Shown here in pieces: positions 12,001 through 18,000 of a stretch of 64,000 nucleotides of DNA. Numbering within the stretch: position 1 is the first letter of the stretch; each line of letters begins with the position of its first letter. A program made the position numbers. The stretch comes from Escherichia coli (GTDB taxonomy: Bacteria; Pseudomonadota; Gammaproteobacteria; Enterobacterales; Enterobacteriaceae): NCBI RefSeq assembly GCF_050920415.1, contig NZ_CP169310.1, one strand, 5' to 3'.

Positions 12001-15000
12001 AAAACCAAAATCAGCTAGGCCTAGTTTACCAGAAGCAATAATTGGACCATATTTTAGTAGAGCCTTTTTATAATCTTCAATATTAGGGGGAATTAAAATT
12101 GTATGACAACAACTATCTTCAGGAGAAAAACCATACCCCAATCTATTTCTTTTGAACTTCCCTTTTAAAATCGTACTAGGTATACTATATTTTTCACAAT
12201 ACCAGTTAATCAGTGCATCCTGACAATACCACCCACAGTTCAGGTCAACAAAACCACCAATTCCCGGACGCCACTGATGCTTCATGTTTACTTTATAAAC
12301 AAAATCCATAAATCTCCTGTAGTTTTGTAATTTTAGAACTTTCTCAACAATCCCTTCGTTGTATTAAAATACTGTACCAGTATATTTCATGTATTTTAGA
12401 TTGTTACCAGTGTAGTAGTCAATAAAAATGCTTATTTTTCATATATCTATTTTAACAATAATACTACGTTATAATTATAAAGCCTTAGCACTATAATATT
12501 CAACCAGCAGCAACCATTTTACTTGTCGGCATCAGAAAATCATATAAAATAGCCTGTTTGATAATCCAGCCCCGGGAGAGTTCCAGTTTGGGGGCCATCT
12601 GGTAGATGCACGGTAATTACTTTTGTTGCTATTTCATCCCGCCATGCAGCAGCAGAGGATTCGACCATATTATGGGAAAGGACATCACCGCGTTCGAGTT
12701 GCTGACGTCCCTGCCTCAACCAGGTCACGGAACCAGGTATTATGCTGCCGTTCAACGGTCTGGCGCATAAAATCCCGGATTAACCGAGAGCCATTACGGT
12801 CCATGCTTTTTTCAGAGGCCATAAAAGCATCCTTCAGGAGAGCATGAAAAACCCTAGGGCAGTCACTGAATGAGGGACCAGCAGCGGTTTTAGTGCCCTA
12901 AATCGTACGTTTTCGTCCGGTTCCCCCTCAAACCCCATGTTCAAGTTAGAATTGTGGACAGGCGGCCAAGAACTTCGTTCATGATAGTCTCAGGAACCCG
13001 TTCGAGTCGTTTTCCGCCTCGGGCTTTCATATCAATTGTCCGGGGTTGATCGCAACGCACAACTCCTGTGGTATGTATACCAACACCATCCAACGACACA
13101 GCAAAGCCGGCAGTGCGGGCAAAATTGCCTCCGCTGGTTACGGGAACAACAACAGGCAGGCGGGTCACACGATTAAAGGCCGCCGGTGTGACAATCAGCA
13201 CCGGCCGCGTTCCCTGCTGCTCATGACCTGCGGTAGGATCAAGCGAGACAAGCCAAATTTCCCCTCTTTCCAAGTCAGATTTCCTCCTGACCAGTCGCCG
13301 GTGCATCCAGCCATTCTCGTTCTTCAGCTGATATTTCAGCATTCGGATCACACTGTGCCAGTAGCTCAGCCAGTGAATATTGCGGGCGTCTGTGCGGCTC
13401 AACAATCAGCCGGCCATTATCAATGACCATGCCAACTTCATTATCTGTACCCAGAGACAGAGCATTCAGCAGTGCCGGTGGGACGGTCAGCATAACTGAG
13501 CCGCCAACCTTCTTCAGTCGGGTGGTATGCATTCTTCACCTCCATAAAAGTTATATTTAAATATAACATCCACTAAAAAAACACACCAGGCTTTAACGCG
13601 CAATGTTTAATAAAAATATAACTTTCAACCAAACAGTAAAACCAGCGTGGTTGCTTCCATATGCAGCAATACCAGCAGCAGGCCACCACTTCTGATCCTG
13701 GCCGCTGATGTAATCAACCCCACTAGGAACAGTTCTGCCAGTGTCAGCAGGTTCTGATACTGGCGGTGCGCGGCGACGAACAACAACGACGTTATCAGCG
13801 CCCCCAGCCACATCGTCCAGCACCAGCAGTACTGAAGGGGCCGCTTGGAATTCGGAAATTTTCCCACGTTAAAGGGGCTGCCTGTCAGATCTTTTCCGGT
13901 GACCATTGTTCGACACGTGGCCACAATCTCAGATCCCGGAATCAATCCGGCATATTCCGGTGCTTAACTTTGCCTCCAGTGACGCGGCGACGGAAGCCGG
14001 CCTTGTGATGACGGTGTTTACCGTTGCTCTGATGTTCAGTGCAGGGAAATTATTAACCCGTTTCTGTTCCGAAGATTTTTTCACAGTATTCTACACCTGT
14101 CATCTGGCTGTGCTGGGAATTCTGGCGTTGTGGCTGGTATGATACTGACGCTGATTCTGATTATTAATAAACAACATAACACAGGATATTTATGAAAATT
14201 ACGGATCACAAACTCTCTGAAGGTATTGCCCTGACATTTCGTATTCCTGAAGGAAATATAAAACATCCTTTGATTATCTTATGCCATGGATTTTGTGGCA
14301 TCCGGAATGTTCTGCTCCCTTGCTTTGCGAATGCCTTCACAGAAGCAGGATTTGCAACGATTACTTTTGATTATCGTGGATTCGGTCAGAGTGAGGGAGA
14401 ACGAGGCCGTCTGGTTCCTGCAATGCAGACCGAAGATATTATTTCAGTTATCAATTGGGCAGAAAAGCAGGCATGTATTGATAATCAGCGTATTGGGTTA
14501 TGGGGTACATCGCTGGGAGGGGGTCATGTGTTCAGTGCAGCTGCGCAGGATCAACGCGTACAATGTATTGTCAGCCAGCTAGCTTTTGCTGACGGTGATG
14601 TTCTGGTTACCGGAGACATGAATGAATCGGAGAGAGCTTCTTTTCTGTCCACGCTGAATAAAATGGCAGAGAAGAAGAAAAACACCGGGAAAGAGATGTT
14701 TGTGGGGGTTACACGGGTCCTAAGTGATGATGAATCGAAGGTATTCTTCGAGAAAATCAAAGCCCAGCATCCCGAAATGGATATAAAAATACCTTTCCTT
14801 ACTGTCATGGAAACGTTGCAATATAAACCGGCAGAGAGTGCAGCCAGAGTTCAGTGCCCTGTTTTGGTTGTTATTGCAGGTCAGGATAACGTGAATCCGC
14901 CGGAACAGGGAAGAGCATTATATGATGCTGTTGCTTCTAGTACTAAGGAATTATACGAGGAAGCTGACGCATGCCATTATGATATTTATGAGGGCGCGTT

Positions 15001-18000
15001 TTTTGAACGTGTAGCAGCTGTGCAGACACAATGGTTTAAAAAATATATTTAATTGACAGTACTACTACGTTAAAGGGGACCGTCTGGAATTCGGAAATTT
15101 TCCCACGCTAAGAGTCTGTCAGGATTCTGTGTAAAAACCTTTTCTCAGAAGTGAGCATCCAGGCGGTCACCGAACTCGATAATCAAGCGGCTCATTGCCA
15201 TACACCAGCCCTTCAACGACATCTTCCATTTCTGGGATGCAGACTGGATTGCCAGCCACCCTACTTTTTTTACCGAGTCGTCTGCCGGGAACACTTTACG
15301 CTGCATCAGAAAGGCGGGGTTACACCATCCGGCCAGTGAACGGTGCCACACTCCGGGCAGAACATGCCGCCGGCGCTGATACCGGCAAGAATGGTCGCAA
15401 ATTCCCGCTCCGTACAGCGGGCGATTTCCGGATGCCCTTCGTCATCGATACGTACAAACCAGAAGACCAGCTTTTTGTTTCCGGCAACCATAACGGTAAT
15501 TACAGACCATGACAAACCGCAGCCGTCAGGCTGCCTACCCGGCCGGTGGAGACGTTAGTCAGCAGCAAACCTTGTCTGGTTATTAAGACCGTAATCCTCA
15601 ACAAGAGGAAGCCCGATAACCTGAGCACTTGGCCGGGATCTCAAAGAATAAATCTGGGATTCTGACGCTGGAAGCGGTCCTACCAATCAATAAAGCTCTT
15701 ACATGTTTAGTCACAAATAAAACACAACAACATAAATTAATATTGCCAACATGTAACAATCAATTAACCATTTGTTGCCTTACTCATGAAAACACTTTTT
15801 GTATAACGTTTACGCAGCGTGTGACAAAAACGAGCTACAGACTCCTGCACGATGTGTGAGTTCGAGGAGATCTGCAATGAATCTCTGGCAACAAAACTAC
15901 GATCCCGCCGGGAATATCTGGCTTTCCAGCCTGATAGTATCGCTTCCCATCCTGTTTTTTTCTTTGCGTTGATTAAGCTCAAACTGAAAGGATACGTCGC
16001 CGCTTCATGGACGGTGGCAATCACCCTTGCCGTGGCTTTGCTGTTCTATAAAATGCCGGTCGCTAACGCGCTGGCCTCGGTGGTTTATGACTTCTTCTAC
16101 GGGTTGTGGCCCATCACGTGGATCATTATTGCAGCAGTGTTCGTCTATAAGATCTCGATGAAAACCGGGCAGTTTGACATCATTCGCTCGTCTATTCTTT
16201 CGATACCCCCTGACCAGCGCCTGCAAATGCTGATCGTCGATTTCTGTTTCGGCGTTTTCCTTGACGGAGCCGCAGGCTTTGGCGCACCGGTAGCAATTAC
16301 CGCCGCATTGCTGGTCGGTCCGGGCTTTAAACCACTGTACGCCGCCGGACTGTGCCTGATTGTTAACACCGCGCCAGTGGCATTTGGCGCGATGGGGATT
16401 CAGATTCTGGTCGCCGGGCAGGTCACAGGCATCGACAGCTTTGAGATTAGCCAGATGGTGGGGCGTCAGCTACCGTTTATGACCATTATCGTGCTGTTCT
16501 GGATCATGGCGATTATGGACGGCTGGAGCGGTATTAAAGAAACCTGGTCTGCGGTTGTGGTTGCGGTATTACTGTTTCACAGGTTGTGGGGTCAGTCCCC
16601 GCCCCGGAAGAGTCTTACAGGTAGCTCCTGCTGACGGAGGAGCTGTTTCCGGATATTTCTCGTCAGGTGTAATATACACCTGTGTTGTGGCTACATACCC
16701 GTCACTGAAGGTGGCTTCAATGTAAGTGGCTTGCCACCCGCGGTTGGGAGGCGTCAGTGGAATGCTGAGTGTATCATCGCCGCCAGTCAGACTGACGGGA
16801 ACTGAGGTGTATTTAACATCACAGGCATAACGAAAATCTCTTGCTACCGGGTTCCTAGCTGTCCACTGCAGAACGGCTGCCGGCTTCTCTGAGAAGCTAA
16901 CTGCCAGCTCCTTTTTTCCGTTTCCGCGGCTCTGTATTTTTTCCGTAATTTCAGGGAGCTTTTGCCCATTCTGAAAACGGTTAACAAAAGTGGTCAGCGA
17001 CTGCTCCGTAACGGACAGAATGTCATAATGTGTGGAGTTTGGTACTACCCGCAGGGATTTCCGTCCTGGTAGCCGATCATAATAAAAATGACTGTTGTCC
17101 GGGACATAAAAATCATCACCGCTGGCGTTAATAATATATTTATCCATTTTCAGACGGTCGCCCATATCGGTATTCAGATAAGTAAGCGGGTCTTCCAGCG
17201 TCATCAGGTTTGCAAATTCATCTGTATCAATCTGCAGGTCAATGTTTTGTTGATAATACGGATAAAAAGCCACTGGCCAGTTTTTCCCGTATGACTGATA
17301 CATGTGTTCAAGCGATTTTTTAATATTCAGCAGGTCAAAAGCAACAGGAATAATGGCATCAACATCTGGGTCTGACAGCGCAGTCAGCCATGCGGCCCAG
17401 CCACGCTTGGAGGCTCCGGTGACAATAAACTTAGTGACATTCTGTTGCGCCAGTTCTTTCTTCGCCAGCCTGAACGCTTGCGATACCGACGCTGCCATTG
17501 GGATATGAAGGGACGCGTTCTGGTATTTCTGTGTATCTCCGATAAACAGTTTCCAGGAATATGCCACGCTGTGATCTTCAGCCAAAGGCGTCGACACTCC
17601 CTGATAGCTGAGTACCTGATTAGGGACGTTACTGACAGCTATCACAATAGTTCGAGTAGCAACCGCAATACGTGAAAGTTCTTCCTCGCTAAAGTTTGTG
17701 GGGGCCACGGGACTGCCTGAGCCATTATTATTGCTGCCGTTATTGATAACAACAAGGGCATGTTTTCCTCTGGCTGAATCAGGAATATAGATATCCACCC
17801 CGTTCTGCCAGTATTCCGGATAGACTATGCCCTGTGGAGACCACGCCTGTGAATTCAGGATATACCTCTGCAGCATAACGCCGGGTAGCTGTTTTTTTTC
17901 CTGCAGAGAATAATCAAGAGGAAGTGCCGCAAGTGACATCCTGTAATCAGAAATGACATGCGTCATACTGGTATTTTTATTGTGTTCATCCGCAGACAAA

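Follow-up and report, generated by a model that had tools for sequence, protein, structure and literature searches.

How did two isolated 38-bp transposon ends come to stand, pointing the same way, on either side of a traX remnant and an intact hydrolase gene? The question is raised by a stretch of 64,000 nucleotides from a large Escherichia coli virulence plasmid (contig NZ_CP169310.1, assembly GCF_050920415.1), which we call the window, and by the two repeats in it, A and B. A first-pass annotation had taken the DNA between the repeats for a relic of a second F-like plasmid backbone, captured by transposon-mediated recombination. We find that A and B are, judged by their sequence, real Tn3-family terminal repeats. 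They are probably two independent relics of related Tn3-family elements, one in the tir gene of the resident backbone and the other in the spacer between the hydrolase gene and finO of a donor plasmid, which were joined later by an insertion sequence (IS) and illegitimate recombination and have no present function as a pair. The window matches plasmid pCFSAN004180G (NZ_CP012500.1) except in its first 3.9 kb (window position = record position + 3896), and its features are collected in Table 1. Comparison records are given by accession, name or L number.

Repeat A reads GGGGCCGCTTGGAATTCGGAAATTTTCCCACGTTAAAG, starting with GGGGCCGCTTGG at 13837, and repeat B reads GGGGACCGTCTGGAATTCGGAAATTTTCCCACGCTAAG, starting with GGGGACCGTCTGG at 15075; the start of B had been placed at 15065, 10 bp too far left of its GGGG outer end. 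In an ungapped 38-bp frame (A 13836-13873, B 15075-15112) the two are identical at 32 of 38 positions, close to the ~30 counted originally. They share a 22-nt core, GGAATTCGGAAATTTTCCCACG, of which the window has exactly two occurrences (plus strand, 13847 and 15086), while shuffled sequence gave 0 matches to the core even with 3 mismatches allowed (0 expected by chance). A repeat search of the window likewise paired 13837-13872 with 15076-15111 at 89% identity. As had been claimed, both point the same way: GGGG...ACGYTAA is read on the plus strand in each, and since the GGGG end is leftward in both, they are direct repeats. The inner motif ACG(C/T)TAAG is present in B, which ends in ACGCTAAG; it is also found at the inner end of A, ACGTTAAAG, with one extra A, and the last 2-4 bases at this junction may come from the neighbouring DNA.

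Both repeats conform to the 38-bp length, the 5'-GGGG outer end and the ACGYTAAG-type inner end that characterize Tn21/Tn1721-like ends of the Tn3 family. They match the ends of the intact Tn3-family transposon of the window, at 32475 and 36289, at 30-31 of 38 positions (A at 30), which bears out the distant kinship proposed from the first reading, and each matches the left end of a 286-bp miniature element, described below, at 35 of 38. Failure to align with Tn3-family ends, which the first-pass annotation had named as the result that would speak against it, was thus not seen with either the resident transposon or the miniature element. A loose pattern, GGGG-N27-ACGYTAAG, finds B and both perfect ends of the intact transposon. 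These similarities place A and B in the same clade as the 3.8-kb transposon and the 286-bp element. Among the TIMEs (miniature elements with inverted repeats, derived from Tn3) of Table S2 of PMC13367494, the best matches, to the ends of IMU and MITESen1, reached 26-29 of 38; Table S2 supplied all the curated sequences compared.

In contrast to the paired ends of Tn3-family elements, A and B are solo and direct, and have no interior, no partner repeat and no demonstrable target duplication. Only six such repeats occur in the whole 225-kb plasmid, namely A, B, the pair of the intact transposon and the pair of a MITESen1 copy, so that both A and B are indeed without a partner; a repeat near 36831, also listed as solo at first, is one end of the MITESen1 copy. 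The ends that a Tn3-family transposase needs are inverted ones, and A and B, being direct, do not make a working pair.

A and B stand exactly at breakpoints between backbone modules, and these breakpoints can be read directly off the DNA, as can what the repeats are, their lack of partners and the donor origin of the segment between them. To the left of A, homology to the canonical RepFII backbone of pAVS0744-A (L011) runs to ...GTAC(C)GTGAA, up to the GGGG of A. The canonical tir gene is 654 bp long, and its remaining (5') part is absent from the window and from the whole 225-kb plasmid. A 25.7-kb mosaic block (13837-39527), of which A is the left boundary, replaces L011 2787-3328 (542 bp, including most of tir) and splits the canonical order pemK-pemI-tir-oriR-repA. 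At B, homology to the canonical traX-uilS-finO arrangement, uilS being the hydrolase gene, spans 13954-15076 and stops at the outer end of the repeat, ...ACGYTAAA(GG), where the canonical sequence reads ...ACTACGCTAAAGG/TCGTTGAAG...finO.

The piece of traX and uilS between the repeats shows that a second F-like plasmid contributed DNA here. Across its traX tail, spacer and 286-aa hydrolase gene the segment is collinear with the canonical traX-hydrolase-finO end found in other IncF plasmids (for example pVirR1, NZ_CP031707), at 94.8% identity. Its traX part, put at ~60 codons in the first reading and consisting of 62, shows 85-87% identity with the canonical gene and 80% with the resident one. 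The latter is full length, and not another remnant as had been thought, and is directly followed by finO with no hydrolase gene between, the host's own transfer region being of the traX-finO type. The difference between 94.8% and 80% identity, together with the hydrolase-less resident arrangement, makes the segment the relic of a different F-like lineage, and in this respect the first-pass annotation was right. It is a relic rather than a working module, because finO and the DNA beyond it are replaced by repeat B and IS1414 debris; traX is cut to 62 codons.

Between A and the traX remnant lie 78 bp of orphan DNA, carried by only 12 plasmids and with 0 matches among GTDB representative genomes. 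They are not diverged traX, as global alignment gave z = -1.1 with the canonical and -0.6 with the resident gene, compared with 14.6 between the two true traX genes; neither are they an IS end or a Tn3-type repeat, for comparison with the miniature elements, with the transposon, and with all other parts of the window and of the plasmid gave no match. In NZ_CP061340 (L002) the 78 bp are preceded by the last 33 bp of a RelE/StbE-type toxin gene (30/34 nt agree with a copy carried by the host plasmid, and the match to the toxin model has E = 3e-4).

The same record bears on the order of events. L002 carries, at 94% identity to the window, the 78 bp, the traX remnant, the hydrolase gene, a repeat B' (AGGGACCGCTTGGAATTCGG-ATTTTTCCCACGCTAAG) and an IS256-type element; repeat A and tir are not beside this segment, and an inverted repeat of the same type, with native interior, lies just beyond the 33-bp toxin end. 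This arrangement suggests that truncation of traX, its fusion to the 78 bp, insertion of B and landing of the IS all predate the link with A. B and B' have a derived base in common at position 5 (GGGGA), and likewise the IS junction; in A the consensus G is found and the IS is missing, so that A did not arise from B by replicative copying. The stretch of the window that resembles L002 starts at 13872 (AAGGGG...), and the final 2-4 bases of A (TAAAG) thus fall together with the TAAG found after the toxin gene of L002. The inner junction of A looks like an illegitimate join at this short TAAG microhomology, which would explain why A appears trimmed at its inner boundary. Tn3-family transposases act at the outer GGGG end, and the inner junction of A consequently cannot be their product. 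By their position, the outer ends of A (within tir) and of B (within the spacer between hydrolase gene and finO) resemble transposition junctions. The proposed capture by transposon-mediated recombination is thus supported in part, by the outer ends, but not by the join of A to the relic, which lies at the inner end of A and does not resemble a transposase product. On the whole, the first-pass reading is mostly borne out.

Two short shared sequences were considered as traces of a common history of A and B. A 12-mer, ACGTTAAAGGGG, present at 13866 and 15067, might be a sign of recombination, but two unrelated junctions that both end in TAAAG and continue with GGGG fit better: the canonical backbone already reads ACGCTAAAGG at this site, and the stretch has no wider similarity to any repeat. 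CTGTCAG, reported earlier after both repeats, is indeed there (13882-13888 after A and 15116-15122 after B), but as a shared feature or common interior it is a coincidence. There is no wider similarity around the two copies; the one after B lies inside the terminal repeat of an IS1414-like fragment, as a local variant of the CTGTTTAGG read in other copies, and the one after A lies in DNA that elsewhere is found 3' of the RelE/StbE toxin gene. Neither A nor B is followed by the native interior of the 286-bp element (AGAATTGAGTTGAACG...).

The order and mechanism of the joins may be inferred as follows. In an F-like donor with the order traX-uilS-finO, an element would have inserted in the uilS-finO spacer at ...ACGYTAAA/GGGG, with B as its left end, and an IS1414-like insertion sequence would then have landed at the inner edge of B. 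In the donor lineage, all of traX but the last 62 codons would already have been lost, and this tail would have been fused to DNA that lies downstream of a toxin gene of the RelE/StbE type. A related element, with A as its left end, would separately have inserted in tir of the resident RepFII-pem backbone, and a join at the TAAG microhomology could then have removed the interior of this element and fused the inner end of A to the donor fragment. The outcome would be the 25.7-kb mosaic block between tir and oriR.

Several points weigh against this scenario. The only evidence that the outer junctions arose by transposition is their precise position: no 5-bp target duplication can be demonstrated for A or B, whose left flanks are CTGAA and TTAAA, respectively, and whose right ends and other target halves the plasmid lacks. 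A search of the genome collection for the predicted right-end junction, CCCCYTAAAGGTCGTTGAAG, gave no match, and further copies of the outer junction of B were likewise not found in a metagenome scan. Both repeats are trimmed almost exactly at the inner boundary, which needs two separate coincidences, the IS at B and the microhomology at A. The origin assigned to the 78 bp depends on a match of only ~34 nt. Finally, A and B match the ends of Tn3, Tn21 and Tn1721 at only 18-27 of 38 positions, and in this comparison no named transposon matched their exact sequence. As to the duplications, they are absent also from the intact transposon (flanks ATCTT and ATATA), from the MITESen1 copy (flanks TATAT and TACCT) and from all four inspected copies of the 286-bp element. 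This suggests frequent recombination between copies, and the flanks of the inspected copies thus give no direct evidence of recent transposition.

The direct orientation of A and B, and the order of their flanks (target side, left end ... donor side, left end), are also what would be predicted for an unresolved cointegrate, in which a single replicative transposition from the donor into tir produced two direct copies, with A and B as their left ends, and later deletions removed the interior of the first copy and most of the donor. That transposon-mediated rearrangements happened in this plasmid is indicated by the intact resident transposon, which lacks a target duplication. However, 6 of the 38 positions are not the same in A and B, and the two have no derived changes in common; the A at position 5 and the IS1414 junction that B shares with B' of L002 predate any fusion, and repeat A has neither. 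Moreover, the sequences that follow the two repeats are unrelated, and the other half of tir, where the right end of the second copy would be expected, is absent. We therefore consider a cointegrate unlikely. Still less of the probability falls to a composite of the TIME-COMP kind, in which two direct miniature elements bracketed uilS and moved it to the RepFII region with transposase supplied in trans, their res-containing interiors and right ends being lost afterwards. Direct copies are on record for TIME-COMPs, and res sites in this arrangement would be unstable, which would favour survivors without res (PMC13367494). Each repeat is also 35/38 identical to the left end of a miniature element widespread in IncF plasmids, and uilS is intact and under purifying selection. 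Yet L002 has the traX remnant, uilS and B' without a repeat in the position and orientation of A, which indicates that the segment was linked to B before A. Neither a right-end repeat nor a duplication is present anywhere in the plasmid, and in place of complete TIME copies at both ends there are only 38-bp left ends. A traX pseudogene and 78 bp of junk also form part of the segment, and the inner junction of A resembles an illegitimate join.

A bolder version of the composite, to which we give marginally less credence again, is that A and B are the rest of a TIME-COMP-like element that carried uilS from an F-like transfer region to the replication and maintenance region of a virulence plasmid, and that its ends are still usable. 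If this were true, the transposase of the intact relative, 17 kb away, could use the ends (by one-ended transposition or cointegrate formation), and uilS would be mobilisable cargo, not stranded debris. Chance similarity, or membership of some other repeat class, has nothing beyond the short length of the repeats in its favour, and we regard it as close to impossible, given that the 22-nt core occurs twice against 0 expected, that the repeats resemble Tn3-family transposon ends, and that at least 733 plasmids have the 286-bp element with its inverted ends. On the preferred reading, two independent insertions joined later, A and B are ordinary mobile-element debris of an already known kind, with no new mechanism or working system. 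In mosaic IncF plasmids it is routine to find Tn3-family ends standing alone where modules meet; the use of A and B lies in reading plasmid history, A being the edge of the block that splits the RepFII-tir-pem backbone.

Table 1. Features of the window around repeats A and B, the transposon region and the resident transfer genes
Feature	Position	Strand	Remarks
pemK and pemI, toxin-antitoxin of the resident RepFII-type backbone	12941-13532	-	Annotated as PemK and PemI in identical records; 97% to L011
tir-like CPBP intramembrane protease gene, 3' fragment	13625-13836	-	Annotated as 62-aa fragment; cut at outer end of A
Repeat A	13837-13874	+	Solo left-end-type Tn3-family terminal inverted repeat, GGGG outer end leftward
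78 bp of orphan DNA	13875-13952	.	Not traX
traX remnant, last 62 codons and stop	13953-14142 (codons 13954-14139)	+	NCBIfam PRK13706 TraX, positions 190-248 of 248, E = 3e-21
uilS, alpha/beta hydrolase, intact, 286 aa	14192-15052	+	NCBIfam NF047920 equivalog; RefSeq name uilS
Repeat B	15075-15112	+	Solo left-end-type Tn3-family terminal inverted repeat, orientation as A
IS1414-like (IS256-family) terminal ~190 bp	15112-15302	-	Adjoins inner edge of B; cut at 15302 by another repeat fragment
Dispersed repeat fragment (hypothetical open reading frame 15306-15515)	15303-15544	-	Four further copies in plasmid
Truncated lldP (L-lactate permease)	15490-16566	+	93% to full lldP module in L010
Intact Tn3-family transposon, 3.8 kb	32475-36289	+	tnpR, res, tnpA, perfect 38-bp ends
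tnpR (serine recombinase)	32521-33111	-	In intact Tn3-family transposon
tnpA	33272-36256	+	994 aa; NCBIfam NF033527 Tn3-family transposase, 1193 bits
MITESen1 copy, both ends present	36611-36868	.	229/256 identical to ISfinder sequence quoted in PMC13367494 Table S2
Canonical RepFII backbone resumes, oriR-repA side	39487-41489	-	L011 3329-5286 against window 39528-41489, 92%
Resident finO	44616-45176	-	Directly after resident traX; no hydrolase gene between
Resident full-length traX	45231-45968	-	Complete gene

The miniature element that helped to place A and B may be more useful than the finding on the repeats themselves. The plasmids with sequences at least 90% identical to A number ~2,400, and in none are these sequences annotated. 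In several plasmids the A-like sequence is the left end of a 286-bp repeat-res-repeat element with a second, inverted Tn3-type end (copies at L009 4000-4285, L013 1501-1786, L014 ~1505-1785 and L015 1504-1789). This element is near-complete in at least 733 plasmids and fragmentary in ~4,900, and is never annotated. Its interior aligns collinearly with the tnpR-tnpA intergenic region of the resident transposon (score 42, compared with 21.7 ± 3.4 for shuffles; z ~6). Since the tnpR-tnpA intergenic region is the expected place of the res site, the alignment marks the 286-bp sequence as a repeat-res-repeat element of the resident transposon's clade. No match was found between this interior and IS101, IMU, TIME244 or MITESen1 (PMC13367494 Table S2; z < 1). 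With two Tn3-type ends and a res-like interior, the 286-bp element is in concept like IS101 and TIME244, which PMC13367494 describes as TIMEs with res sites; it is distinct from the enterobacterial TIMEs of this 2026 survey. A and B differ from TIMEs in being single ends, not miniature elements.

Ends of these types were also seen in other combinations. In L002, a 1.6-kb segment (2377-3970) with a ProQ/FinO-family gene lies between two inverted, dissimilar Tn3-type ends, the left one MITESen1-like and the right one of the A/B type, and may be a hybrid non-autonomous transposon. In L007 (2954-3041), a degenerate MITESen1-like end stands upstream of an A/B-type end, and a 13-bp partial copy of the outer part of an end (GGGGTCCGCTTGA) directly precedes the full end; this arrangement suggests nested insertions into older ends.

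We noted that, although its neighbours are wrecked, uilS has remained intact. The alpha/beta hydrolase gene that had been reported between the repeats is an uninterrupted open reading frame of 286 aa (Table 1), and the product matches NF047920, the UilS family of quorum-quenching N-acyl-homoserine lactonases, with 506.8 bits (cut-off 400) over residues 2-286 (model positions 1-285). The ratio of nonsynonymous to synonymous substitution rates (dN/dS) is ~0.18 relative to two relatives, and the G-T-S-L-G nucleophile motif is preserved. An intact frame with this ratio indicates that uilS is probably still functional, and purifying selection on it may be the reason why the fragment persists. UilS was characterised in Serratia marcescens as a urea-induced acyl-homoserine lactonase (PMC11633161). 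The Escherichia protein is like it in being a full-length equivalog match to NF047920, and is thus a predicted lactonase; in contrast to the Serratia gene, the Escherichia copy is plasmid-borne, lies beside transfer genes, and is known here from its sequence. The Serratia paper (PMC11633161) does not mention traX or IncF, or a quorum-quenching enzyme at the end of an F-like transfer operon.

The 286-aa hydrolase is presumably the 'orf286' that R6-5-type plasmids have between traX and finO; when the literature was searched for 'orf286' together with finO, nothing was found. The long-unnamed IncF hydrolase beside traX, present in thousands of plasmids, is now placed in the UilS family, and this too is perhaps of more use than the result on A and B.

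The intact transposon adjoins a fragment of an IS630-family transposase gene (31981-32466), and its non-matching flanks imply rearrangement after insertion. A further solo Tn3-type end, GGGGTTTGGGGAGCAATGGAACAGTAAACGCCGTTAAG, lies at 31675-31712; we take it to be similar to the end of gamma-delta (Tn1000), 28 of 38 positions being identical to that end. The right boundary of the mosaic block reads ...GAGATTATAAA/CGTTACAT at 39486/39487 and makes use of a ~125-bp repeat, which adjoins the outer end of another A/B-type repeat in a related plasmid and in a chromosome.

The region from 13500 to 15500 is 100% identical to IncFIA/FIB plasmids (~224-242 kb) of E. coli and Escherichia sp. strains, including NZ_CP012499 to NZ_CP012501 and NZ_AP025748. 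Plasmid pCFSAN004180G also carries ehx, 2 sta1 genes, astA inside IS1414, F4-like fimbriae and a type VI secretion cluster.

To the right of B, the IS1414-like fragment and the end of the IS1414 copy that the plasmid itself carries are 90% identical along 193 bp, in which the terminal repeat (GAGYCTGT...) and the 3' part of the transposase gene are included. These are the parts it has in common with IS1414 (IS256 family), of which only 190 bp remain here; the longer IS copy of L002 matches the IS256 transposase model NF033543 with E = 2e-33. The same IS end, GAGYCTGTTTAGGATTCTGTGTAAATGCC..., occurs in L004-L006 without an adjoining Tn3-type repeat. Of the dispersed repeat that follows, 190 bp (15303-15493) have four more copies, 87-90% identical, at record positions ~123.1, 142.1, 146.8 and 181.1 kb; those at 123.1 and 142.1 kb lie ~0.7-0.8 kb from sta1 enterotoxin genes.

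Together with truncated lldP, these pieces make up a module (Tn3-type end, IS1414 fragment, small open reading frame, lldP) that is found at 15075-16566 of the window, L010 30045-31757 and L020 7005-9678. A full lldPRD operon accompanies the module in the related plasmid L010 (repeat at 31716-31753), and the module also lies upstream of the native chromosomal lldPRD of strain RM9088, where the junction has the same outer flank as the L010 copy. Such a distribution suggests that chromosome and plasmid have exchanged DNA. Two direct solo ends, at 31716-31753 and 27004-27041, also bracket the lld operon in L010.

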